Assembly: GCA_965113315.1 (NCBI GenBank)
Contig: OZ220368.1
Source: Podarcis vaucheri
Lineage: Eukaryota
Direction: 5' to 3' (one strand)
DNA: 64,000 nucleotides
The position numbers and the translations under genes are program-made. The first letter of the stretch is position 1. Each line of letters starts with the position of its first letter. The notes beneath the pieces are model-generated. The model was not told where the DNA came from. It saw only the letters and a list, made by a program, of their open reading frames with translations, and did not search any database. Positions 1 through 64,000 of the stretch are shown in pieces.

Positions 1-140
1 GCACCCGGGGCAAGGCAAGTAATTTGCGCCCCCTAACCCTTGAATTTGCGCCCCCTAACCCGTGGATTTGAGCCCCCTAACCCCCAGATGTTGCGCCCAG
101 TGCGGCCGGCCCCCCCTGCACCCCCCACGCTACGCCACTG
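1..140. mobile_element. hAT-type MITE (truncated by the window edge), same family as 17667-17807
   Basis: Ends in TIR ...CACGCTACGCCACTG and is a near-identical reverse complement of 17667-17807, with one extra internal CCCCCTAACCC unit. Confidence 0.8.
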
Positions 141-1199
141 CCCTCTCCCCCCCCCCGCTGCTTACTCCAACGTTGTGGCTTTCTTGAGAGTAAGAGTAGC
201 GGATACACGAACCGCTGCGAACTCATTGCCCTGGTTATTTGTGCGTTGCTTTCCCAAATGACATCCCTTTTGTGTGCGCGCGTGTATATTTGTAGCCCCG
301 GGAAGATGCGTGTACCGAGGGGAGTGTGGGGATTATCTGGTGTCTATTCTTAGACGTGCAGCATGTCTTTCGCGGTGTGCCTCTGCAGATAGATCAGGAG
401 TGTCTGTTTACGGAAAGAGGTAGGTAGACCCAAGTATGTGCATATAAACGGGTACGAATAGGTGAGGGAGGTCTGGAGAAGTCAATCATGTATATATTTC
501 CCTGTGCAAAACGTATTTTCCCCAACTTTATCTCTTAATACGTATGCTGATGAACGGTATTGTGTATATAGCGCAGCACCTGTCTGGTCGTATCCTTCCT
601 TGTGAACCTGCCTCGATCTGCCTGGCAGCCCAGTCTCAAACTATATTCAGAGGTGAGGCATGGATCCGCTTGCCAATTCTTCCCCTGAGTTCAGCGGGAC
701 AGACTCCTAAGTGCATATTTCTTTCTAAGTCATGATTAGGATTTCAGCCTCCGAGTGCAATCCTAAAAACCCCTCGCTCCCTTATAAGCGAATAACTTAT
801 AAGTTAGCTTAAGTGAGTATGTTACTCACTTATAAATAACTAAATACCTCGGGGCCGATTTCTGGGTTGACAGACATGGAATCAGTCTGTTTATAAAACA
901 TGTGCCTACTCCGTCCATCTATGAAGCAGCAAAATGCACAGTTTGTGGGTTTGTCATGTGTGCGTATATATTACATATGTGTATATTAAGTTGCCAAGCG
1001 GGAAGCCTGCTGAGGAACACACGTTTTGTGTGTGCAAATGGCAAGGGTGATGTGTACCTTTTCAATGGGGCCGCCTCTAGAGAAGTCTCCGGACGCAATT
1101 GAAGGCTACGAACCTCATTACGCTTCCTTGAATTCCTCTGGCCTCCGTGGGCTCTGCAAATAAATAAATGCGTGTCAGAACGGGGTTTGTGCGTGTGAG

Positions 1200-4100
1200 A
1201 GAAATTGGGGCACTGTGCGCCCCAGAGTTAACAGCTGTCAAGCCCAGTTCATTTCAGTGGAGCTTCTAATAAGTCTTGTGTTTTACTCTCTTTTTGAAAA
1301 CTGCGGGACTTAAGAGCGTGGATCGTGTCCGCGCTCCTGTGTTGCCCATAACGATACTGAAAAGGCCCTCTCTCTCCCCTCCCTGGGTCTATATGACATT
1401 GCTGGCCAAGGAAACATTCAGCTTGGTTCCGGTCATATGAGCCGTTGTAGCCGCAGAGCGGCGGCTGTTTTGCCAGTATGGGCCTCCTGGCCTCCTGTGT
1501 CGCCTTCGCAGGATGCACAGATGCGTTATGGATAGATGCATGCACGCGTGCGTATGAACTGGTCACCCTCCTGTCTCTCTACGTTTGTGTGCACGTGTGA
1601 AGTCCCGAGAGAGAGGGTGCTGGAACAGATGTGCTCACGCGCCCTTTCCCCCCTGAACGCACAAACACGGGACCTGCCGCCGGCGTGTGGCAGAGGGCTG
1701 CGCATCTCTCTGTGTGCAGCCAGCAGGTGGTCGCGCATCTCCCGCTTGCTGTGCGCCCTCGCCTGCCCTTCCCGACTGCTGCTGCGCGCGTGGCACAAGT
1801 GCGCTACGCCGTGTTCTTCGCTGTTCCTTTCTCTTGCCCGCCGCTGCCTCTTGCTGCTATCCTTTGACTGCCTTGGCTGCTTTGGGCCGGTAAATCTACC
1901 TGGCTGCCTCGGAGGCTTTCGAAAGGGAGATCTTTAGTTTCAGAATTGAGCGCAGGGCAAGCAGCCCTCGACTTAGAGAAGGCTGACGCCGTATGTTTTG
2001 GCATCGCCCCGAAGCCAGTCTGGACTATGGAGAACCGAAGCCTGTTCATGCATACTCGGAAGTAAGGAAGCGCTCCATGGGCCTTAGTGTTCCCCCACCC
2101 CACGAAAATAATAATAACCCCCAGGGACTTCAATGCCGCCGCCATCCCCAAATCCGGTGAAACTGGGGGGCTGCGCTCCGGCACAATCCTATTCAAATCG
2201 ACAGTCTTAAGTGTAGCCTTAAGCTGGGGGCACTTACCTGTCTGCGTAATGGACCCATCCTGAGAGAGTACACTCATTTACATGAGGCCAAGAGAGTCTT
2301 TTTTTTAAAAGCCGAACGTTAATTTCCTAACAATTTCTGTCGGTAGGAACATTCCGTGGCTTCGATCCAGAAAACCTATTAACTAAGACGCGGGCATCGT
2401 GTTCTAAGCGGCGGGGATCCACGTGAGGCCCTGATCCGCATACCAGCCCAGCTAAGGCGGAGCAGGCTCCAGCCCACACACTTACTTGGGATCAAACCCC
2501 GTTGAACGCAGAGGGCCTTGCTTCCGCCTAAACTCACACGCAGAGCATTGGGCTGCTTTTGATTCCCTCTACGATGGCTTGATCTGCAATCATTCACGGC
2601 TCAACTTGCTTGCGGATAGTAGCCACGCGCGCAAACAATATGAGGCATTCCCGTTGCAAAGCGGGTTCTTGCTAGGCACAGCTTAAGGAACTGGCTTCCT
2701 AAAGGAACCAGAAAGCTAAGCAATTCCTTTAAGGCGGGCTTTGGGAGGAGTACAGCCGATACGCCCAAACCACGAGCCTTTCCAGTACAGACCCGACTGG
2801 AAAAAGCGGCTAGGATCCCTCTACCGCTCCAGGACCACAATCCTCAACTCCGCTACTTGAGAGTAAAACCCATTGAACACAATAACTTGCGAGTAAACGT
2901 GCATGCGCAGCCCAGTACCCGTGCCTGATTGAATACTCGGTTCCGCTGAGTGAAATGCGTAGAAAAATCCTAATGCGCATTTGGATACGCATCTTTGCTG
3001 AACTTGGCCTGCAGCCCAATTTGGACAACTGGGGAGCTGGATGAACCCCCGACCTGTCGTGTCAACTTAACACCCCTCGGAATGGAGCTTGCCCTTCCTC
3101 CAATATTGGGGGGGGGGCGCTACGGCGCAGCTACACGGGAATCCAACTTTAGATTTCCACCTAGAGAAGCCTACACCTTAAAAAAATGCGAATTGGGGAT
3201 GCGACAGCGCGTGGACGCAAACACTTAAATCCTATACTTTGCTATGTGGCTCTTCACCTTTGGCAAACTGGACTGTACCTCTTGCGGGAAAGAGCCTTAA
3301 ATTTGCTCTTTCGTCTGCGCCCCATTTATCCTCTTCGAGGACTTTCTCGCCCGCCGGTGGGCCACCGAGAATTATCTTTCGGTTAGGCTCCCGTCCCGTT
3401 TTTATTTCTTTCCGGAGCTGCTGCTCCTATTTTTCTAAAACCAAATTAAGGAAGGAAGGCAGGGCGGAAGGAAGGAAGGAAAGACGGGCTGACTGCATGC
3501 GGAAACATAGATCAGGAACTTGCTGCAAACCGTGTGCCCCAAATTTATAGCCTGGGTCACTGTTAGAGTATTTCTAATGGAGAGTCAATTGGTTTAATTC
3601 AATTAGGCCTAGAATATAACTCAGAAAGTCCGTTAAATTCCAATTATCTAACCGCTGGAGTGTGCGCGCGCGTGCGTCTGCATTCCCCCATTTCCCCCTT
3701 CCTTTCTTTCCATGTGTAGACAAACGTCAAAGTATTCATTTACATATTTATATCTCCCTGTTTTATCTCTCTCTGTCAACATTGGAATACGCAGAGGATT
3801 GCCCGCTCCTGGGCGGAGCTGGATGTGGTGTGCATTCAGTATTTTAGGTCGGCCCGCAAAAAAAAAAAACTATCCCGCCTCTAAATGCATTAAAAATAAA
3901 AGCACCATCTCTGCGCGCGCGGACGCAAAGGCCACAACCCGCGCAGAGCAAGGTGCTCTTAAGCCCATGGAAATCGGTGGAGATGATGCTATCTCTTTGC
4001 CGACTAGGCCTTCTCAGGTTCCCAGTTTGTTTGTTTATTCCTATAAATGTTTGGGCTGAAATCTCTATTCCATCTCGAAGTGCCCATGTTCTTCCTAATC

Positions 4101-7100
4101 CTTCCGATTTTTCTCTCGGGACTCTTTTTCCCCACGGGTTTTCTTCCTTTCCTCGATCCCATACATCCGATCGTGCGAATGCGTTCTTGCTTCCCTCCCC
4201 TCCTTTGCAAAGTCCCACCTGCCCAAATGCCTGCCGAGGAACTCTGGTCCCGGGACCCGAGTACACCTTCTCCCCTCTCTCTTTCCCAATTGATTCGACG
4301 AAGGAGGTCTCCTGATCCCGTCTGACTGGGGCGCACTTTTTTTAATGGAGGGTTTTTTTTTAAAGGCATCTTTTAATTTTTGTTGGAGCAGGTGGGGGAT
4401 TCCACCTAGGCGTTTCTGGAAAGAAGCAAAGGGCACCGCAAACGCTCGGAAGCTCTTTTCCTAATAGAGATGCGCAGGCGTTTAACCTGTTAAGGACGGC
4501 TGACTGCCGCCACCCGCCGCCACGTCTCCTTTTTCTGACTGCTCCCGTTTTGCGAGGCTCTGAGGACCCAGACGCCACTCAAATAAAGCACACTCCATTC
4601 TTTCCTCAGTATTGGGTGTGCCCCTCCACAGTCTCCTGTTTTTAAGAACAATTCTTCGCTCGGAGAATCTGTGGCAAAATGGCACTGCGCCTCTCACTTT
4701 ACCTTCACTAACGGTTTGCGTCGTCCTCTTTCCCTGCGCACCCCAATTTGGCTCATTTACCGTATTTCCAAAAAATGCAGGGGTTTCAACCCCACCCCTA
4801 GCAAACAGGCTAACGCGAAGGAAGGGAACGGATTTCCCTGGAAACCCAAGTTCCCAGGATAGACGGTGGTTCGAAGTCGAAGTGTGTTGTCAATTTCAAG
4901 TCAGTTGAGGAGAGAGAGGCGTTTTCTTTTTGTTTTGTTTTAAGGCAACTCTTTTCTCTGAACGGTTGACTAACCCATCACCTTTTCCGCAGTGATCCAG
5001 TCTGGAATTCACAGCCTCTTTAAAGTGGATGGGCTGTACCCGGATTAATAGGACGCAAATCGAATTAAATCCACGTTAGTTCGGATAACGTGGTGGTTTC
5101 GGATTCAAGCTATAAAATGCGCCTTCTTTTCCTTTTAGAAGTCTTCCTTCCTTCCCTCCCACCCCGACTCCCAATTCAGATTTCCCCACCCAGAAAATCG
5201 AATCTGGATTTGAGTGAAATTTGAGATAAGCTGAGAGGGTTCGGTTGCCCGTGCTTTGGTTCCCCCTCTCCAATGGTTTTGCGCTTTCTGGTTGTTCTTA
5301 CTAGGGGAAAACGAGGCAGGGTGCTGGGGGCCAGGAGCGGGAAAGATCCATGGTGTGATAGGTACGAAGAAGGTGCGGGTCTTGCTCCGATTCTCGGCTG
5401 TGACTTGATCCGATTTCTTTGTCGAGTGAATTCATTCTCTCTCCTGGGGACCGTAAGGAGAGAAACGAAGTCACCTCTTATCATGGGGATATATCCCTGG
5501 CCTCCTCTCTGTCTTTTCTCGGCCTTCTCCAATTCACTCAAGGCGGGGAAGCGTCGTTCTCTGTCAACGTCCCTACCTCGCTTGCACCACGAGAGACTTC
5601 GGTTTCCTGACCGGACTGGAGCCGCCTTTCCTTTGGGAGGGGGCGGGCGGAGAGGGTGAACTGGGTAGCCCGACCCCCCCCCCCCCATCCCTCGAGACTG
5701 ACTGGGCTGTGATGGGGAATATCTATGTTGTTGCGTCCAGCAGCAAATCCTCTTTTCCCCACCGTGTCGAAATGTAACTTGAGTATGGAACCTCGGCGCA
5801 GAGGGGAGCCCAGATCTGGACCCAAAGGGGGTTGGTTGCAAGGTGTGTGTGTGTGTTCCTTTCCCTTCCTTGGATTTGAGGAGACAGGAACTCGCCCTCG
5901 TCGCCGGTTGCCGAGCGAAAGGCGACGCTTTGGGCTAAGAACGAAAAGACAGGTTTTCTAAATTCGGAGTGGCAAGCCCCGATTTCTCTCGCCTCCTTTG
6001 TCCGCACCGCTGATGTTTTCCATATCAAGGAGTTTTCTCTTCCCGAAATGGGGTTAGAATTTTACGCAGCCTGCCTATGCACACAGGCACGAGAATTGTG
6101 CGACAGTGATTATATATTATAATGCATTTTATGAATGTGGTTTTGTATAAAACCGTTTTTAGCATGCCCTGCGCGTCACCATTCGTATACCACGTAGTGC
6201 AAACAGTTTCCTGATCACTAAACACCTAAAAGTAATTGAAAGGAGCAAGTAAATAACCAAAAGGGGGGGGGGGGAGAGAGACAGATAAACAGGAAGGGAG
6301 AGGGGAGGGGTAAAAGTGCGGAGGGAGAGGCGGAGGATAGAAAATTTAAAGAGGATTTTGCGTGGGCTATAGAAATACAAGCTTCTGGATAATATGCAAA
6401 TAATTTGAATCTTAAGCTCGGATGGTAATGCGCATTTTCTGCGGCGCTTATATTATTTTCTGTGACGCTTGCGCAGGAGAAAGGGCAGGTGCGCTGCGTC
6501 TTTCGCAGGTGTGGGAAGCGTGCTTAACCGCAGATTAGGCAGATGAAATGGTTAAGTGGCCCGTGTGGGGAAGTGTCCTCAGGGTTCCTTGTTTTCAAGT
6601 GTCTGTACCCAGAGGGGCACGGAGACTGTGGTCGAGAGGTGGGGGGCTGAATGTTTGCGCCCCATCGATTTGCTGTCGTGATGGGACCAAGCCCTGGCAA
6701 GCAGCGGCCTCTGGAGATGCAGGTTTTCTCGCGGTCTTGTTTGCGCGCCAGAGCGCGGGCGCCTTTTCCGACGCTCGGCTTTAATCTCTTTGCGCGCTTT
6801 CCAGAGATCTGTCGCGGATTCCCACTTTCCGCGCGCGCGTAGCTGGGGACAGACAAATAACCCTTTCTTCCCCCTTTACCCTAACTTCCGCTGCCTTCTG
6901 CGTGAACATCAGCCGCTCCTGTTGGAGTCTGTCAGGAAATAAGCCAAACAGGACTTCAGACCATAAACAAAATACAAACACTCGATTTTGCATTTAAGGG
7001 CATTTTGTTATTTTACATCTAGGGACATTTTAAATTCCGTTTAACTGCACCTCTTCTACACTGATGAGCGAAGAAAAAACAAATTACTGACACCGACTTA

Positions 7101-8900
7101 AATGGTCTGGGTGTCTCTGTTCTGCCGTGATTTTTGATGGCCCCCTCACTCCTTGTCCGGCGCGGGGGGGAGGGGGGAGAGAACAAAGCATTCCTGCATT
7201 TTTAAAATCTCCAGAAAATCAGCAGCCTCTTGCATTTTCGAACCACTAATTTAAAGACACAAAAATGACGGTTTCCTCACTTTCTTTTACTCGTTTTTTT
7301 AATACAGTTGCTGGGTTTTTGTGTGTGTGTTTTCTACAGCTCCAACAAAAATACAGCCACCATTCTTCCGCCCACTCCCTCCAGTTGAGACAAATAGAAA
7401 ACCATCTATAAAGTGGAAAACAACAACTTTCATTGCATTCTGTTGCTTAAAGCAAATCTCTGCTTGGCTGCTTGCCTTGTTGAAGTGGGGGAGGGGGGTG
7501 GTGGCCGGATCCTAGGAAAGCAAAAGGCACCGGGGACCCCTTTTTTGTTTTTTTTGGGTACCTACCTTCTTCGTCATTTTGGAAGCTCAGTGGAGAGAGA
7601 GGACGAAGAGACCCTCCAGTTTTGATCTCTCCTTCGGAATCTGCGTGGCTCCCACCCCCGTTTTCTTTCCCGTGGTGGGATCCCCTAGGGAGGGAGTGTG
7701 CTCTCCTAATTCCATTATATCAACTGGAGGAAAACTCGTTCTCCAGCGCCCTCCCTCTCTCCCTTCCCGTGCAATGTACTGCGCCGCAGGCAGCAGCCTC
7801 GCGTCTCCCTTCGCGGGTATGTCTTCCCTTTCCAAGTACTGCGTCTTGTATAAGTGGATCTTGCCACCGGTGGGCGAGCAAATTGTCGCCCTAAGGCATC
7901 CCAGGCGCAGACCGGATTTCAAGCCGTTTGTTCCCAACCTTTCCCTGGAAAAACTGCGAGGTAAATAACGACAGCCTCCTCCTCCTCCCGTTGTTCCTGG
8001 GCGATGATGTGAGTCCCAGCTTTGGGCCAGGTGGCTGCTGCGACAACGTGGTCGCAGGAAAAGGATCCTCAGTGGATCGCCAGAACAAGGTCCCTAACCT
8101 GAGGTCTTGGACGCAAAATAACTAGGACGCTTTTGTTGGCCACAACTCCAAGAAACTTAGTTTTTGCGGCACTCCAAAGCCGGCGTGGAACTGCATTAAA
8201 CGGAATTAATTCGCATCACCTCCGCTCGCTTAGCGTTGCACCTGGCTGTTGGGGACTGAGACGATGTTTAGCCTTCCCCATCCCCTGGCCCAGCCGTCCC
8301 CAGGGTTGCTATGTATACCCAGAGCATTTTCGCTTTATTTTGTGATATTTCCCCATTAAATTTATTCTTGTTTCGGCAAAGGGAATGAGTGGGGAAAGTT
8401 GCACAGCGCCAGCTTTTGAGGAAAATTAAGAAAGATTGCTCTCCCCTCCGCGCATCGTAGATGTGAAAATAATAACCTATGATTTGTGGTTTAGGAGAGA
8501 GATTGCTGATGGTGGTCTTAATGTAGACACCCATCATCACACCAGGGTCATCACACCAGGTGCGCAGGTTTTGAAGGTTGCATTGTGTGGTTGGTGTTCT
8601 TAAAAAGAAAAGAAAAAACGGTGTGTGTCCATAGGCCATGGGAAGCAAAGACTCTCTCGAACCACTTTCAGCTCTCGTAGAAATTATCTTTTGTCTCTGG
8701 TGGTTTCCTATCAAATGCGCCTCTAACCTCGAAAGGTTCTGGAACCCGAATCCGTGTAAAAGGCAGCATTTTGTGATGTTTTTGGCAGAGCACAGCGCAG
8801 CTCTGTTCGTGCCTGCTCAGAAGCAAGCCTCACTGAGTTGAATGGGGCTTACTCCCAGGCAAACAGGCATAGCGTTGCAGCCTTTAACTCCCACTGCGAA
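1200..8900. promoter_or_regulatory. Extended CpG-island-like, TE-depleted region (5' region / proximal intron 1 of LHX4)
   Basis: High CpG density (many CGCG/GCGC runs) and no recognisable young SINE or LINE, in contrast to the rest of the window. Typical of developmental transcription-factor loci. Boundaries approximate. Confidence 0.7.
7774..7960 (+). CDS. Candidate alternative first coding exon of LHX4 (donor at 7816 or 7960)
   Basis: ATG at 7774 (G at -3) inside the CpG island. Two phase-1 donors, CGG|GTATGT (after 7816) and GAG|GTAAAT (after 7960), both join in frame to exon 2, giving ...SPFA-E-IPQC or ...LEKLR-E-IPQC. No transcript evidence. Confidence 0.4.
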
Positions 8901-11900
8901 GGGTAAAATCTTCGGGAAACTCCTGATCCGCTTTTCCCATGCGCTGAATTTCTATGGCAATATCGCATAGCAGAAATTAAATCAATGCAACGTTGCTATT
9001 GTTGTTTTCCGTGGTTTTAAAAGGGCAGAAATTTAGAGCATGTCTTTTTCAGATCACTGAAGAGATCCTTTTCTATACATCTCTTGAGCCCACTCTGGGC
9101 TTCTCTGAATTCGTGTGCTCTAGCCCGATATTCAGTGCGCGATCCAGCCAAAGTTAATGGGAGTCCCACCGATTTTAACGAGAGAGAAACCACCACGTTC
9201 TTAACTTCTGGATTGAAATAAACGAAATTCACGGTTTAATGGCTTGGTCATGTATACTAATTGTTGCTATTTATTATTATTTTTTGTCACATAACCACTT
9301 TACTACAATTTGCTTCAAAACAATGAAAAACAGCGTTGACACACGTTATTTAAAGCCCTTGCAAAATTTGCTGAAATGAGCACTTTGTATGTAGGTTTGT
9401 GCTGCAATTTTTGCTTGCCTCCTTTTCCTTTACCCCCTTGCTTTTAAAACATCGGGGGGTGTGTGTATGTGTTTTTAAAAAACGACAGCACAGTTCTAAC
9501 CCCTTGTTATCTTGCTCTCCTCCTTTGAAACATGCAGGATTCAAATCCATTATCAGACGCCCATCTCCTCTCTATTCCAGAAAAGCCTGCCCTGGTTCAA
9601 ATAACCAAAATATGCAGGAGTAAAATGAAAATAAACAAATAAATAGATAGATACTGATGAAAGGCACATTATCCAGCCGTTGGTATGGGGATTTGTCCCT
9701 TTGTTCCCAGTACAGAGAGTAGGAGGCACACTAGGCGAGAAAAGATAATTTAAACTTTAAATTTTTCTATGCTTTAAAGTTTCAGTGACACAGCCATTTA
9801 ATGTACAATAATTTTTTTTAAAAAAATTGGTGTATCTGGAAAGACTTACACATTAGCCTTAGAAGAAACCAGTCCAGTACAAGGTAACAGCTTAGCAATT
9901 TTATATCCTCTCGTGTGTGTGTTTGTGTGTGTGTGTGTGTGTGAATCAAAATTCTGAGTATATATAGTATTCACTTTTGAATTCTGGAGAATGAATTTGC
10001 TTCATTACCTCTAAATGTGAATATGAACAGCAGCATTTATATATGCCTTCGAGAGGTAATAAATAACAATATACATTTTGCTAAGTTACTGAGCTTTCAG
10101 TATTGCAGCAATTTTACAAAAGGCAACTAAGGTTAAGAGGCAGTGAATTAATCACTCAGTGGGTCTATGGTGGAGATTAAATTTGGACTGGGATCCCTCT
10201 TAGCTTAGCACTCCAGGTACTGAATCACATTCTTTAACACTGCAGTTTTGAAAAATAGCGCACTTCTATCTTAGTGGACCACAACTATATAGGAAAATCA
10301 ACTTGAAATTGTTTGACTGTTGTGACATTTCTCTCCAAGCAATATTGGGATTATTATAGCTGAGCATAGGGTGGGAGGGACGTAGGTTGTCTCCCCAACA
10401 TAGGACTCCTATCTCTTTTGCAAAAGTATGATTACTAGGCTCTCTTGAAGAGCAGCAATATGCAGTGAAAATATCAAGAATGTTGGACAAATGCGTCTGT
10501 TTGGGACCCTAGGGCCAAGGAACAGGGTAGTCGTTCTGTTTATTGTGGATGCGGGGACATGCGTGCCAAGGACAAACTTTTAGGATTAAGCCATGGAAGT
10601 GTTTATTTAACCTGGTTTTGTCAAAGCATTGCCTGTTGTGTTTAATATCTTAAAGGCTTTTCATGCTTGGTTCTGTTCTTGGACTATGTTCTGAAACATT
10701 GCTTTTATGCACACATGTGTCTTCTTCAGAGGTGCATTGTTGTAACTTTTGAAGAGTTACTTGCATGCCTGTTTCTCTACTGAGACTTCCATAAATTGGA
10801 GCTGATTTGTTGTGGCTGCAGATTGTGTTTGTGGTGGGACAGGGGTTGCGGGAGCACAGCTTTCCACAGGGCTATTCCAGGTTCCTTCCCTAAATGTTCA
10901 GCTTCAATTAAACAAAGCTATGGACATAGCATTCTAGCCCAGGGCTCACCAATGCAGTGCTCTCCCAGGTGGTGCTAGAATCCAGCTCCCCTCTGTCTCA
11001 TCCAACATGGTCAATTGTTGGGGATGATGGGCGTTGATATTCAGCAACCTCTGAAGGTCACCAGTTTGGCTCTCCCTATTCTAGGTCCTGCTGCTGTTTT
11101 AAGACAATAAAAGGGGGTGTTCCCATGTTCTGACAAATGAGCAAAAAGCTCATTTGAAGCAGAAATGCTGTGTACTTTAAAAATGATTAAATTAAATGTA
11201 CATTTTTTAAAAAAAATTAAAATTACGGGATAACTTTTAAAATGCAACGCATATTACCTTACATTTTAAAATATTTTAAATATAAGAAAGAATTAGGAAA
11301 CCCTGGTAGCTAACAATAAAAAAGCAATCCATATTCACCTATGTTGTGTGTAGGTTTTCTTGGGCTTTGGCTTAAGGTTCCTCTCCTGCCCTACATCACC
11401 AAAATGGGAACTAGATTTTTGGATGAAAGGCAGAATAAAATAAAATGCACACATAACAAATATAAATTTAAGGAACCACGGGCAATCAGAATACATGGGT
11501 CTCAAAATGCATACCTCTCAGGGATATAGACTGCTATTTTGCAAAGGAAGGAAACAAAAAAAACAACAACCCACCTCCCTAAAATACTTGATTTTCATTG
11601 TGTTGAAGTGGCACCAGCTGTTTTTTTTTATTCAAAGTACTTTAAATCACACCATGTTCTAGTAACTTTACACCAAATTAAACTGCTCAATGGGACCTTT
11701 AATCACGTTTGTTGCTGTAAAAAAATATATACTTAGATTTAGTTTCAGGGCTAGCCCATTTTGGTGTGGTGAAAAATCCCAACGACATCTTTCCTGCTTC
11801 CACTAATTAGCGTGAGGCACAATCCATAAGGGATGCTCTCCTGTGCTGGTCTGCTTGAAATGAACAGCATCTGGGGAAACTGTTGCCTTGCAGCACGATC

Positions 11901-13893: not shown

Positions 13894-13973
13894 CCTAGAA
13901 GATGAATAGAACCAAATTTGCTGCTATTGTTGTTTCTGCCCCAGAATGAGAAGGTCAAAAAGCCATTCTTTGT

Positions 13974-14064
13974 GGTTGCTGGGCAACCACCGCCGCCCCC
14001 GGAAGCAGACGCGGCGCCGCGCTTCCGGTGCGGGCAGCGCCGTGCCCTCACCAAAGATGGCGGC
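13974..14064 (+). promoter_or_regulatory. Promoter-like motif cluster at the 5' end of the URM1 retrocopy
   Basis: X-box-like palindrome GGTTGCTGGGCAACC (13974-13988), inverted ETS/GABP pair CCGGAAGC (13999-14006) and GCTTCCGG (14021-14028), and YY1 motif AAGATGGCGGC (14054-14064). CpG-rich. Confidence 0.55.
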
Positions 14065-14362
14065 GCCCTTGTCCCTGCTGCTGGAGTGCGGAGGTGGAGC
14101 AGAGCTCTTGTTCGGCGGGATCAGGAAGCAGCGGGTGACTCTGCCCAGCCAGCAAGGACCTTGGGATGTCCGAAAGTTGCTGGTGTGGATGAAAGAGAAC
14201 CTGCTGAAAGAGAGGCCGGAACTGTTCGTGCAGGGAGAGTCTGTGCGGCCGGGAATCTTGGTGCTGATCAATGGGGCAGATTGGGAGTTGATGGGCGAGT
14301 TGGACTACCTGCTCCAAGACCAGGATAACGTCGTTTTCATCTCCACCTTGCATGGTGGATAG
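14057..14362 (+). CDS. URM1: URM1 (ubiquitin-related modifier 1) intronless retrocopy, intact 101-aa ORF
   Basis: [21 protein letters not shown]...[51 protein letters not shown]. Same length as vertebrate URM1, retains the C-terminal GG, strong Kozak context (AAGATGG), no introns. Confidence 0.93.
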
Positions 14363-17300
14363 ACTGCTGGGAGTATGGAAAAGAACATTTGTGCTGGTGG
14401 GCAGAGGGCATAAACATGCCTTGCTCTCCTGGCTGTCACCCCAGATCAGAGTCGGTTTCTCATTAGCTTCTTTTCTTAATGAAGTCTGCCCTTTCGACGC
14501 TTGGCTCCTCCCACCCAGTGGTTCAGCTCTCTCCTCTTTTGTCCCAGAAGGAGATCGAAATCCTTTCTGCACCTGGTCACCCTCTTCCCTGCTCCAAGAG
14601 GTTCATGCCATGGGACAAGTGGCTGGAAAGGAGCCGCTTTGCACGTGGCTGTCGCCCTTGTTTGCTTTCTTCTCCTTGGCGGCAGGGAAATGCCTGTGAT
14701 CAAAGAGGGGATCTCCCTTTCCTTCCAATCCAAGCCTTGGATCTGGTTGCAGCCATTAACAGTCATTAAGGGATATGGGGCGCATGCAAGGAAGATGGCA
14801 GATGCAAGACTCCCTCAGCCTATCTGCTCTTGATTTGCCATGCATGGATTTCAGTTCTGTGACTCAGTTTTGAAAAGTACCCAGCTAGAACCAGCTCACA
14901 AATGGTTACTTTGAATTTTGATGACTAATGAAGTATACTTTTGCCTGCCTTTTTTTTAAAGAAGAAGAAACTTGATGACCCTCAGAGTCCGTTCCAGCTC
15001 TACAGTTCTATGATGCTCTATTTTTTAATCTTCTGGTGGCACTGCCTGATCCTGTTCTGCCACAGCTGCTGTGTATGCATGCGATTGATTTCCCTTTCCA
15101 AATTGTCTGCTCTGCACTGTTCTGTCGCAAAGTGTTTTGCAATGTGTTGCAGAAGACGGAGTGCTTCATTTGAAGCTGGGTGTTCCGGACTCAGGTTCTG
15201 CCTCAGTCATGTACTTACTTCACTGGGTGGCCTTGAGCAAGTTGCGCTCTCTGTTAACTTCAGTTCCACATGTGTAAAGTGAGATTTGAAATGATTGACT
15301 CTGCAGGATGGTTTTGACAATAAACAATAAAAGTTGTGGAAACAAAAACAACACAAAATTCATTCTTTGTCAATGGTCAATTGTAATTAATTTAATGCAT
15401 GTTTTGAACATGCAACTTTGGTTATGTATTTAATTATTTGCAAAAATCAAATAGGCTATGTTGTTTGTACCTATTTGAATCTGTGAAGGACATACATAAT
15501 ATCAAATAGGTTATGGCTTTCAGAATGAAGGCTGAGTGGGTGGTTGCTAATTTCCAAATTGTGCAAAAGTGGAAGAATGACACAACTTTAATTGAAGGCG
15601 TGGAAGATGCTAATAATGGATAAAGTATTGCACCAATGGAAGGTAGCATTTTAACCCCAGATTTAATTATTGGAAAAAGGATTCCTGTTTCTAACTGAGC
15701 AGCTTGGAACAATAATAGACCACCCAGACTCTCATCCACGAGGATTTACTGAATTGAATATTGCCGTTGTCACTTGACCTTTGGTTTATGTACCTGAATA
15801 AATCACTAATTTTACTTCAAGTATTATGTTACTTTATAGATCTGCAAGGGATGCTGTTTAGGTGAAAATTTTTATGAAATCCCAAAGAGCTAAAAAGGAC
15901 AACAAATTCTAAAAAGCTAAGGCAAGGTGTTATCTTTTATATATAACCTGAAACAGATTCACCCTGCTCAGTGAAAAATGAATGCAGTTTGAACAGTCTA
16001 GAAAAACCTCCTATAAGAGTCTCAGAACTTGCTGTTTCTGTAGGAGAAATAAGTTATGAGAATGTCTTTCCAGCTGTCCTTGTTGCATGAACTTGACCAC
16101 ATGTCATAAAGAGAATGTTTCTCACAAAACATAATATGTAAAGGAAAGTAGGGGAGAGATGTAACCCTCAGACAGGGAATCTGGGGTGAAAGTCACTTAG
16201 GGATTTGTAAGGAATCCCTCATCCTTTGGATCACTTAACCTATAATAAAATTCATCTAAATTTGGCACCAAGAAAGCCACAATTCTGCACTTCAGACAAA
16301 AGAATGGCACTAACAAGCAGCATGCAGACACCTGATTTGTGGCTTTGTAACTGAGTTGTTGCAAGAAGGAATTGTGTTGGAGGGGAGCAGGGGGAAAGGC
16401 AGAGAAATAAGGAATGGGAGGTAAAAATGATGGATGATGGATGGTATGGATGTGCTTATAGCTGAGAGCCTAGAGGAAGTTTCACATTTCAAAGCAGGGG
16501 CCAGAATCTCTGGCCCTGAGAACTGGGGCCATTTCTAGAGGCAGCTTGTATGTTTTCAAGCACAATCTCGTTAGTCCTCATTAGCGACGCAAACCAATCC
16601 AGAGTCCAGGACACTCACATTTACCCCAGCTGCCTTCATCCTCTAAATTTAAATTTGAGGGCAGACAGCTGTGTTTTGCTTTTGTTATCCTTTAGAATAC
16701 CATTTTACATGGACGGTGTTCCATAAATACATAGTGTACTATAAGGTAATAATTATTATTAATAATATAATTCCATAAACATTTGGGAAAGTTTGAAAGT
16801 GAGATTAGATCCTGCAGAATCCATGGCCAATGTCAGATTCTGTCCCAGACCTCAGAAGATCTGTACATGGAAAAATCATAGAAGATAAACAACTCTGTCA
16901 TGGGGGTGGGGGTGAGTGGGTCAAGCCCAGCACCTTAAATCATAGCCCTGCAGAAAGCTCCAGATTAGGACACCACAGCAGATTGTGTTGACATAGGATG
17001 CTCTTGACAACTGGTCCTGTTTAGCAGGCATGTTCCACAATGCAACGCAGGAAAGTCTCCTGAAAATCCATGGGTACCTGATATGATCCATGCTACGCCT
17101 TCTTTGTGGAACCAGAGCAGTTAAGATGCGATTGATCAGCAGGTTGTATTGCCATCACAGCTTCTCTGCATGCTACTTCAAAGGCAAAGGCAATGTCATG
17201 AGGCGGAGGGAAGGAGGCTGCCTTGTGAATTATGGCATCATTATTATGCAAATAAACAGCACTTCTTTGGGAATTGATAGGATTTTGCGCAGGATCATTA

Positions 17301-34637: not shown

Positions 34638-34904
<267 letters not shown>

Positions 34905-46026: not shown

Positions 46027-46154
46027 NNNNNNNNNNNNNNNNNNNNNNNNNNNNNNNNNNNNNNNNNNNNNNNNNNNNNNNNNNNNNNNNNNNNNNNNNN
46101 NNNNNNNNNNNNNNNNNNNNNNNNNNNNNNNNNNNNNNNNNNNNNNNNNNNNNN
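46027..46154. other. Assembly gap (128 N)
   Basis: Run of N. Confidence 1.
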
Positions 46155-60075: not shown

Positions 60076-60215
60076 CTCAAGAGTCGTATGAGCAAAAAAT
60101 TGTGTTCAGCTGAAATCTTTGCCTAATGCTACTTTCTGTGCTTTTTTTCTGCACCAAGTACAGTATATATATTGCTCTGGTTATAGGCATAGTCTTTTTT
60201 TGTTCTCCTCTGCAG

Positions 60216-60418
60216 GCGTTTTGGTACAAAATGTACAGCGTGCCAGCAGGGGATTCCACCCACACAGGTGGTCAGGAAAGCCCAGGACTTCGTCTATCAC
60301 CTGCACTGCTTTGCCTGCATCATCTGCAATCGCCAACTGGCCACAGGTGATGAGTTCTACCTCATGGAAGACGGACGCCTGGTGTGCAAGGAAGACTATG
60401 AGACGGCCAAGCAGAACG
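60216..60418 (+). CDS. LHX4: LHX4 coding exon (exon 3, LIM domain 2)
   Basis: Acceptor ttctcctctgcag| and donor G|GTAGGG. 203 nt, in phase with exon 2. Encodes [67 protein letters not shown]. Confidence 0.97.
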
Positions 60419-60724
60419 GTAGGGATTCAGCAAACATGCCAGGTGTTCCTCTGTGGCAAGATACAGTTGCTTCTGGACAAACAGACAAGAGAACTTGTGT
60501 GAATTAGGAAAAAAAATGGTTCTTTTTCTTTCAGGTGAACATCAGTGGTGGCCAGGGAAGGGGGCAGGTGCAGGAAGGGCAAAGGATATTTCTAGGTTGG
60601 CAAGGTATGAAAGAAAATTATGTTAATGACAGGAGTCCAGCAGTGGGGGGCAAGCTCCTTATTTTTTGGGGGGGCACTTGCTTCTCTTTTCTCCTCTGGC
60701 ACCACCTAGTGTTAGCATTAAGTA

Positions 60725-61212: not shown

Positions 61213-63653
61213 TACACGTGAGCAGAAAAGGTAGCAAACCTGTTTATGGGAAATGACAATTGAAATTTGTTTGCAAGGCAGGAACTGAACCCTCTGGGAA
61301 CCTGGGATCCAATCCTGGCACATGGATACACATACGGGACATCAGTTCTGGCTAGTTTCATTTGCAAGTGTGCCGTGAATGGAAGTGAAACCAAATGCCG
61401 GTACCACTCTAGGGTGTACACCCTGTACCGTGGGGTGGCTTGCCTGAGCTGGGGAATGGAGAGTCGTGCCATGAGCTCTCCTGCTCTTCTCCAATCGTGT
61501 CACCCCTCCTGCTGCCTTGGGCCACTTGATGTTGTTGCCCAAACGTTGCAGGCTGGCTCCTTCTGCTGTGCAAGGTCTGGAGCAAAGCGCTGCTGCGTTC
61601 CAGCTCAAAACTCCATACTCCAGACACAAAGCCTGGCCTTGTTTCTTGGGGAGATTTCTATGTCTCAGGAAAGGAGGAATGCCTTGGACGAACAGTGCTA
61701 AGAGACAGCAAGGACATGGCCAGGTGGCAGCTAAGCCTGGACGCCGAACTTTGCAGTTTGTAGCTTTCCCATTTGAATGATGTACCTGCTTCCCTTGGAT
61801 TTCAAGGGCTGTCCTACTGAAACCATGTCTTCTCGAGATTTAATGTACCTCACCAAATCTCCTTCTGGAGTTCTGTGCACACAAAACTTCTTTTTCCTTA
61901 TCGCACAAGGAGTTGCAGTAGATGGGCATATTACCAAGCGAACACACATCCTACTGGAATGGACAGTATTACCTGAAAAAACACAGGTGCAGGGAACTGG
62001 GAAAAGGCAGCCAGAACCTGCCCATTTCACTAGGCATGAACAACGGCCTGGCTCTTTCCTGCCACCCTAGGATCTCCACCTCTTTTCCAGCACATTGTTT
62101 TCTCTCTTGCTGTTAGCCTCCTCAGCCTGAATCTCTTTGCATAACATCATCTTTGGCACATCCTCAGCTTGGGCAAAATGGCTGTGCCAGGGTACATGGA
62201 AGCACGGAGCAGGGGCAGGTCTTGAGCATCTAATTGTTCAGTTCCTCCCGCAAGCTCCCGGAACTGGGCCAAATATTTGGTCCCCCCATGTATCTCCAAA
62301 AAGAATCTTATATTCCCAGGGGATTGATGAGCAACAGAGGGATGCATGCCATCTATTTTCTGTTTAAGATGCTCTGCATGAAGGAACATCAAGAGCCAAA
62401 AGCAACCCCCCCCCAAGCTCAGCTCTGCTTGAGGCAACAGAGTTGTATCTTACACAGCAGCTTAATCTGGCCCTTAACCCAAAGAGTCTCCCATTTTTCA
62501 TCCCGAGGTCTAAAATGCCAATATTTACTGTAGGTGAAAAACCCAGAATTGGGGGTGGGTTGAGGCAAGCGAGACAGAAAGAGGCTATAGATCACCAAAC
62601 ACTAATGAATCCACAGAGACTGCCAAACAGTGCCTGACTGAAATTAAAACTGAACTGGTCTTTAATGGATTTCATGTTGACAAGCCCTGACTTCTCATTA
62701 ATTAAGGACTCTATTTTGACCTAATCAATTTAGCTAGGGTGATGCAATGCCTATTTGTGCTAAGGGGATTGGTTTGGGGGGCAGGGCTAAGAGATCAGAG
62801 ATTGAATATTGCTCAATTTCTATTATTGACTCAGCGTTATCGATGGCTACAGTGTCATAAAGTTTTGCAGCCCTATGGGCTGCAAAGTAAGAGAGGAGGA
62901 ATTCCAAGGCGTGGACCAAACAGGATGGCTAAACTGTCTATATATGAAGGAAGGGGAGACTTGTGTTTCTAAAGAAATACATTTTGTTATCAGAGTACGT
63001 AGGATATTCTGTGGAGCATTTTTGGCTTTGGCAGTTATGCTTCTTCCAGAACATGCACTCTGTCCTTCAAGAAAAGAAAAAAGCTACTGTTAGAATGGCT
63101 GCTATATTGCGAGAGTTCAGAAATAAAGACAGGCACTTTTTACCCATTTCAGCCTGGCAACTTCAACCAGAGAGTATCCTCACACTAGCATTTTTATTGC
63201 TGATCTGATGATAGAGGCTGTTGCTGCTCTCCTTGAAATTCATAGGCAATTATCTGAGACTAAATCAGATTTGGGAGTCTGTTTATACATTTGTTTTAAC
63301 TGCAGAAAATTGCACGTGCTACTGCTTGCAGAACCAACTGACAGTGAGATCCATGATTTCTAGTTGAAGTGTTACTTAATTATAGAATCAAAAGCATGAG
63401 ACAGATGATAACAAACAAGGTCTGGGTTCTCTTATTTGTGTGCTTTTGCAAGCTGTGCAATCAAATGGCTCTAAATTGCCATTCAATAGCGTCAACCTAC
63501 TGTTAAAAGGACAGTGCAGGCTGGTTTTACCTTGTTCTCATTCCTGAGACAGCTTCCACTTTCAAAACTCACGGCACACATATACCTATATTCTGCCTAA
63601 GCTTCCGTTTCATGCTCTGTGTGCCAAAATAAAAGGAAACTGTTCTGTTACAG

Positions 63654-63808
63654 ACGATTCAGAAGCTGGAGCTAAGAGGCCTCGAACCACCATCACAGCC
63701 AAACAGTTGGAAACATTAAAAAATGCCTATAAAAACTCCCCCAAACCAGCAAGGCATGTGCGGGAGCAGCTGTCTTCTGAAACTGGATTGGACATGCGGG
63801 TTGTACAG
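63654..63808 (+). CDS. LHX4: LHX4 coding exon (exon 4, N-terminal part of the homeodomain); the gene continues beyond the window
   Basis: Acceptor ttctgttacag| and donor CAG|GTGAGC. 155 nt, in phase with exon 3. Encodes [51 protein letters not shown]. Too short to appear in the ORF track. Confidence 0.96.
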
Positions 63809-64000
63809 GTGAGCCAAATGGCACAGTGCAGATGCTGTCCTCAACTAAGTAATTGATTGATCTACAGCATTAATTACTTGCCATTAATTACTTGCCAGGT
63901 GGCATTAGCTGAGCTCATGCAGGAGAAATTTGTGTGTGCAAGAAGGAGGCAGCGGAGGTCCCTTTACCCGTGGGTTAAAATTCCACAATCCTGCACTTCA

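Follow-up and report, generated by a model that had tools for sequence, protein, structure and literature searches.

An intact, probably functional retrocopy of Z-linked URM1 in the first intron of autosomal LHX4 in a lacertid lizard

We identified an intact, intron-less copy of URM1 in intron 1 of LHX4, on an autosome of a lacertid genome whose spliced URM1 gene lies on the contig assigned here to the Z chromosome. On balance, we regard it as probable that this copy is a likely transcribed and moderately constrained retrogene that would add URM1 in both sexes and is not kept for the sake of females. It is a real retrogene whose kind is already familiar, and probably a functional one; our literature search found no description of a URM1 retrocopy or retrogene in lizards or lacertids, and in three species its database entries carry the label 'URM1-like'.

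The window, meaning the whole 64-kb stretch of DNA analysed, was placed by genome DNA search at G000:C25:11,098,001-11,162,000, and its features are collected in Table 1. Two URM1 loci stand among the matches listed by protein and DNA searches of the genome, the window copy and a spliced gene on contig C42. The DNA search scored 40 of its 268 candidates, and a 50-bp UTR repeat accounts for 35 of the 42 matches that it listed. The parental gene has five exons (C42 48,967,316-48,932,848, minus strand) and introns of 5654, 22169, 3870 and 730 bp, all GT-AG. Aligned to the parental exons, the window copy lacks all four introns exactly (4/4). Homology to the parent runs over 13975-15341, with 86 mismatches in 961 aligned columns of the 3' UTR, and is followed by an A-rich tail; the longest word common to both flanks is a 10-bp one, duplicated exactly on either side. 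On the strength of the exact intron loss, the A-rich tail and the target-site duplication, 13975-15341 is a processed retrocopy of URM1, of reverse-transcribed origin. Exact intron loss, the target-site duplication and the existence of orthologues rule out a DNA duplication or an assembly artefact. At the left junction, a pyrimidine/A-run resembles a LINE-1 endonuclease site, with other LINEs also possible. A run of 128 Ns lies far from the retrocopy, at 46027-46154.

Table 1. Features of the URM1 retrocopy and of its host gene in the window
Feature	Position	Strand	Remarks
Left target-site duplication	13964..13973	+	10 bp exact; ~16 bp with two mismatches
Copied parental 5' UTR	13975..14056	+	86% identity to parent exon 1; GC 0.76, 12 CpG
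URM1 ORF, 101 aa, C-terminal GG, intact	14057..14362	+	12 aa differences from parent
Copied parental 3' UTR	14363..15341	+	84-91% identity to parent exon 5; AATAAA at 15319, 15326
Decayed poly(A) tail	15342..15360	+	missing from the parent's genomic 3' flank
Right target-site duplication	15361..15370	+	matches left duplication
Host-intron sequence, likely extended 3' end of copy transcript	15371..15802	+	junction-spanning contig; AATAAA 15797
LHX4 second coding exon (LIM1)	34731..34904	+	138-bit Lhx4 match
LHX4 LIM2 exon, ends approximate	60214..60420	+	translation
LHX4 homeodomain exon, ends approximate	63650..63811	+	Pfam Homeodomain and translation

The copied 5' UTR contains CCGGAAG words at 13999 and 14022 (other strand), which we take to be ETS/YY1 motifs; the parent has neither at these places. 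This CpG-rich 5' UTR is likely to be the promoter of the copy. The reading frame is uninterrupted over 101 codons, ends Gly-Gly-stop, and matches Pfam Urm1 (PF09138) at 120.8 bits (cut-off 21.8; E 3e-35) and the mouse URM1 structures 1wgk and 1xo3 at E 3e-49. According to PMC12645042, in part, the C-terminal GG is needed for both URM1 functions. Because it has kept the GG and does not differ from the parent in its final 28 residues, the copy is predicted to encode a thiocarboxylatable protein.

The host gene is LHX4, as the LIM1 exon scores 138 bits to Lhx4 against 107 to Lhx3, which rules out LHX3 (presumably also Z-linked, by synteny). The first coding exon of LHX4 is found 658-733 bp before the window starts; the retrocopy sits in sense orientation within the 35-kb intron 1. 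The start of this intron is covered by a CpG island of ~9 kb (window 1-9500), which stops 4.5 kb short of the retrocopy on its upstream side and may help to keep chromatin open at the copy. Just downstream of LHX4, 14-21 kb past the window end, is a Ty3/Gypsy-type LTR retrotransposon (L015:4200 to L016:830) whose gag-like (388 aa) and pol-like (1564 aa) frames are both open. Contig C25, on which LHX4 lies, is 108 Mb long, ranks sixth among the 18 size-ordered autosomes and also carries three more LRRC8 genes.

The genome was identified as lacertid from its nearest proteins, which come from Podarcis, Lacerta and Zootoca, and the parental translation is identical to Podarcis lilfordi protein P0007. 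Of its 20 large contigs, 18 stand in falling size order and are followed by C41 (41.3 Mb) and C42 (53.4 Mb), in agreement with a lacertid karyotype of 18 autosome pairs plus ZW; the lacertid Eremias has 19 bivalents (PMC6529369, in part). PGK1, UTP14A, RPL36A, RPL35 and COQ4 are all found on C42. So are LRRC8A and a MARS2-like methionyl-tRNA synthetase, which we take to be mitochondrial MARS2. Both genes have been used as lacertid Z-specific markers (PMC6534595, in part), and by this marker content we assign C42 as the Z chromosome. C41 is assigned as the W chromosome, since it carries spliced partners of UTP14A and RPL36A and its ends are rich in telomere repeats. The original prediction, made before the species was known, was that the genome might be lacertid, with the parental URM1 on the Z and the copy, in LHX4, on an autosome, and all of this agrees with what we found. 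In other lacertids, parents lie on sequences of 47-51 Mb, whose size suggests that they are Z chromosomes, and copies on sequences of 95-100 Mb.

Neither URM1 (protein and DNA searches of the genome) nor COQ4 has a match on the W contig among the matches listed. URM1 is 4.4 Mb away from the nearer C42 end, and for it a missing W match would also fit a pseudoautosomal location. Telling against such a location are the ordinary GC around the gene (0.42-0.48), the near-identical W/Z repeats at the opposite end of C42 and, in Eremias, the very small physical extent of the pairing region (PMC6529369, in part). To fix the pseudoautosomal boundary, genes on the distal side of URM1 were searched for W partners: COQ4 showed none among the matches listed, the NAP search returned no SET and the L11 search a single gene on C38; RPL35 is proximal.

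Several further features of the parental gene and the sex chromosomes were recorded. The parental 3' UTR contains a 632-bp dispersed repeat (L005:3140-3771) with long inverted arms and a 14-bp duplication, which supplies an AATAAA-like signal to the parent and matches 40 of the 40 candidates scored in a genome search; it is absent from the retrocopy and therefore entered the parent after retroposition. Two W copies of RPL36A (L066 and L067; C41, 3.88 and 3.90 Mb) are 92-95% identical, introns included, to the Z copy (L065; C42, 18.85 Mb), which is young for sex chromosomes older than 85 My and possibly reflects a recent stratum, conversion or Z-to-W duplication. The W partner of UTP14A (C41:17.77-17.81 Mb) has open exons and spans ~2.6 times the length of the Z copy. 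A long satellite is common to the Z start and both W ends at up to 99% (L073, L084 and L085 versus L078-L083), and 1230 telomere words occur within 10 kb at C42:52.80 Mb (L094), ~0.55 Mb inside the Z end. Three exon matches at 19.0 Mb (L038, L039) show that the likely MARS2 gene of the Z is spliced. Human MARS2 is intron-less and autosomal, and the mammalian gene possibly moved out of the X.

Copies from Lacerta agilis (P0122) and Podarcis raffonei (P0002), together with P0003 and the window copy, formed one clade (4/4 rows, support 100/97) in a tree of 15 rows, from which P0092 was excluded for its shifted N-terminus. Four of the five copies have an intact ORF; the P. lilfordi model P0092 shifts frame near codon 23, through either a real loss or an assembly error. 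The N-termini of P0003 and P0092 derive from flank that matches the upstream flank of the window copy, which places both at the same insertion site. The Lacerta and Podarcis copies have six derived residues in common (C11, G20, R26, G34, K40 and G73), and all show L85, the lacertid residue, in place of the Q of Rhineura. Together with the clade, these residues suggest insertion after the lacertid/amphisbaenian split and before the Lacerta/Podarcis split. Lacertid Z differentiation has been dated to 150-85 My (PMC6534595, in part), and with a 3' UTR divergence of 9.5% between copy and parent, the retrocopy probably arose later than the sex chromosomes. No orthologous copy for Zootoca or P. muralis stood among the best 120 of 1267 protein matches. 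A URM1-like protein of Zootoca (P0012) is a separate duplicate on a 98-Mb sequence; it has 0/6 of the common residues and falls outside the retrogene clade, which rules it out as an orthologue, and it is possibly a second independent exit from the Z.

Transcription was assessed in sequencing runs at a likeness threshold of 95%, which 0% of 90-bp parental windows pass. Copy-type sequence was present in 4/4 runs, two of them RNA by record (one sample) and two RNA by guess, drawn from 16 such runs in a run search whose listing contained no holder recorded as RNA; none of the four bears a sex or tissue label. In X3 (RNA by guess), contigs covered 12 of 30 bins between 14051 and 15764 and had the copy's letters at sites diagnostic between parent and copy; no X3 contig lay in the intron flanking the retrocopy. 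One of them (15210-15764) crosses the 3' junction into the host intron and ends 33 bases before the AATAAA at 15797. X1 (RNA by guess) gave short copy pieces at a depth of ~5, including a 217-bp CDS piece with one other letter; the parent is represented there by a single 95-bp contig of depth 12.5, against 4.7-6.2 for copy contigs, too weak a basis for a ratio. X23 and X24 (raw single-cell RNA from one sample, 12% read) contributed 22 and 17 reads from 17.8 and 15.3 million, mostly on the sense strand at 15014-15315; by depth these amount to ~25, less than 1 per million, with some on a repeat. Priming on LHX4 pre-mRNA could give the same signal as copy-driven X23/X24 reads. Copy-specific RNA is present, as the expectation of an expressed retrocopy had it, and the copy itself is likely transcribed.

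Differences between parent and copy are skewed towards G and C. Set against the reverse, changes from parental A/T to G/C in the copy stand at 9:0 for the 5' UTR and 25:1 for the CDS, which makes 34:1 for the 5' part (5' UTR plus CDS), and at 46:28 for the 3' UTR. The copy's CDS has 14 CpGs where the parent's has 7, and its GC at third positions is 0.75 against 0.58. Dead Z-derived copies of PGK1 show ratios of 40:45 and 32:40 with CpG loss, and the URM1 copy departs from the like-diverged one (40:45) at p 2e-6, so a general AT drift of Z parents is ruled out as the cause. Methylated pseudogenes lose CpG. Among nine replacements polarised to the copy branch by outgroup proteins, seven run from A/T to G/C, two are neutral and none is reverse; the polarised differences to X3 stand at 15:7. 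GC-biased gene conversion acts at promoter-like, hypomethylated hotspots in mammals (PMC11161765, in part), and recombination is biased to such hotspots in snakes (PMC10369914, in part). Conversion of this type at a hypomethylated, promoter-like 5' end is the likely source of the skew, with selection on codon use or on promoter strength as a possible alternative.

Constraint on the copy was evaluated with this skew in mind. Against the parental CDS, dN is 0.056, dS 0.29 and dN/dS 0.19, a ratio that flatters the copy because its dS is inflated by the GC skew; on the 3' UTR rate, 12.5 replacements compare with 20.7 expected, which is marginal (Poisson p 0.03, Fisher p 0.08). Against the X3 orthologue, seven of the eight CDS differences listed are silent and one is a replacement (Fisher p 2e-4); 12 of the contig's 13 differences are listed, and p becomes 8e-4 if the unlisted one is a replacement. 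The copy CDS aligns to the parent without a gap over 306 bp, compared with 18 gap events in the 3' UTR. Selection thus appears to keep the frame and the C-terminal half, less strongly than in the parent: the Lacerta copy and the window copy are 7 aa apart, the two parents 2 aa apart. The copy has F11C, I45M and D73G where F, I and D are found in 108/117, 117/117 and 109/117 other homologues, and given these changes its full URM1 activity would not be assured; the remaining near-invariant vertebrate residues are retained. An 'acidic cluster' role considered for D73 found no support in the literature searched and was dropped.

A transcribed pseudogene or decaying copy, whose frame would owe its survival to its shortness and to the few stops that GC-biased conversion makes, and whose protein is impaired or not made, has a small chance of being the right description. 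The replaced residues at conserved F11, I45 and D73 would suit it, as would those at conserved G13 and E81 in Lacerta, the frameshifted P. lilfordi model, the marginal replacement deficit relative to the UTR rate and the low single-cell read count. However, decay sits poorly with the 7:1 silent excess between orthologues, the indel-free 306 bp next to 18 gap events in the 3' UTR and the gain rather than loss of CpGs, and a PGK1 copy of similar divergence has been broken by frameshifts.

We think it very unlikely that the copy is a specialised paralogue, serving for example testis or brain, or only one URM1 job (tRNA thiolation or protein urmylation), in which the six common residues were fixed early and then kept. 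That those residues are common to Lacerta and Podarcis copies would agree with specialisation, as would the long stem branch of the copy clade and the wide difference in signal among runs, with contig depth ~40 in X3 and ~5 in X1. The two functions of URM1 are experimentally separable (PMC12645042, in part), and retrogenes tend to male germ-line expression (PMC5470649). Yet most of the common changes run from A/T to G/C, as non-adaptive conversion predicts, no role for these residues appeared in the literature searched, and contig depth is a poor measure.

We return to a moderately constrained retrogene and propose the following course for it. LINE-1-type priming would have made the URM1 retrocopy, which would then be transcribed from the CpG-rich 5' UTR that it imported. 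Its unmethylated 5' end would be likely to attract recombination, and GC-biased gene conversion there would push silent and amino-acid changes alike towards G/C, leaving the copy in a conversion-driven drift under moderate constraint. Any expressed copy on an autosome would, as a side effect, bring the male and female doses closer together. Provided that the Z lacks dosage balance, having two such copies would lift the female/male ratio above 0.5, so mild buffering may be expected whatever the reason for retention.

The original prediction had gone further and proposed a ZW analogue of mammalian out-of-X retrogenes that buffers dosage in females or germ-line silencing. The Z-to-autosome geography stands, and the proposed purpose found no direct support. 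In full, this alternative holds that the copy was kept for the single URM1 dose of ZW females or for Z silencing in oocytes, with female- or ovary-biased expression complementary to the parent, and we allow it a rather small chance. The parent is on the Z and has no W copy among the matches listed, while other genes keep W partners, and the copy is retained and likely transcribed. Out-of-Z movement has reportedly been described in the silkworm (Wang et al. 2012, going by the title). Further points in its favour are that Z differentiation at 150-85 My is probably older than the copy (PMC6534595, in part) and that the pseudoautosomal region of Eremias is very short (PMC6529369, in part). Against it, no out-of-Z excess is reported in birds or silkworm in the consulted part of PMC3242482, nor in birds in that of bioRxiv 2026.06.26.734816, and in Eremias diplotene oocytes the Z resembles other chromosomes and the W is transcribed (PMC6529369, in part). 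Going by length, 0.97 of Z-derived copies would reach an autosome simply by chance. A faithful backup should moreover keep conserved residues, whereas this copy changes some, evolves faster than its parent and is frameshifted in the P. lilfordi model. No meiotic silencing is documented for lacertids in the literature searched, and the consulted parts of the reviews searched contain no dosage data on lacertids. We doubt strongly that this is the first vertebrate out-of-Z compensator, carrying its own CpG-island promoter and rewritten by GC-biased conversion into a distinct URM1 isoform.

Other Z-derived copies are mostly dead, which also weighs against the proposed purpose. Four of the eight Z genes looked at have processed autosomal copies (Z genes only): URM1 one, intact; PGK1 two, broken; RPL36A three, broken; and RPL35 one, with an intact frame. 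The PGK1 copies, L068 (C39:11,178,036-11,179,200) and L069 (C29:51,977,100-51,978,000), are ~8% and 15% diverged, and the matches listed include no intact lizard analogue of PGK2. The RPL36A copies lie on C31 and C26. The RPL35 copy (L097:1480-1851; C10, 25.21 Mb) has a full open frame, a poly(A) tail, a 12-bp duplication and one Arg-to-Trp change at a likely CpG, and is a second candidate Z-to-autosome retrogene.

The locus is a clean multi-species candidate for the long-open question of whether ZW vertebrates export Z genes as mammals export X genes. Birds are a poor test, as few retrocopies are made there; lacertids make retrocopies freely and have a Z that corresponds in part to the mammalian X. 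A single gene shows no trend; it does give a specific locus for allele-aware RNA tests in males and females. If the compensator reading were true, lacertids would directly test whether the flight of genes from a sex chromosome needs male meiotic silencing. The GC skew offers a small natural experiment on how a CpG-rich 5' end, once imported, can activate a retrocopy and at the same time distort the protein that it encodes, and a warning that dN/dS flatters such copies.

Mammalian out-of-X retrogenes include PGK2, UTP14B/C and their kin. The pattern, reviewed in PMC5470649, resembles the present case in pairing an intact intron-less autosomal daughter with a sex-linked housekeeping parent that lacks a partner copy (for URM1, among the matches listed), and the lacertid Z and mammalian X share the chicken-4p block (PMC6534595, in part). 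The case differs in that URM1 lies in the chicken-17 block, heterogamety is ZW so that the single-dose sex is female, and no meiotic silencing is documented; unlike in mammals, both PGK1 copies are dead in the lizard, and UTP14A has a W partner instead. Surveys of out-of-Z movement in birds and silkworm (Toups et al. 2011, PMC3242482; bioRxiv 2026.06.26.734816; both in part) asked the same question under ZW heterogamety, and their consulted parts name no lizard case; in contrast to birds, retrocopies are readily made in this lizard, and lacertids give more power. The predicted protein is like the URM1/Urm1 sulfur carrier (PF09138; mouse 1wgk and 1xo3) in length and C-terminal GG, and unlike URM1 elsewhere in its changes at three near-invariant vertebrate positions. 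In comparison with known hotspots of GC-biased conversion, the CpG-rich element of the copy was imported by retroposition and overlaps the coding frame; it resembles them in its local excess of A/T-to-G/C changes, centred on the CpG-rich 5' end and fading in the 3' direction.
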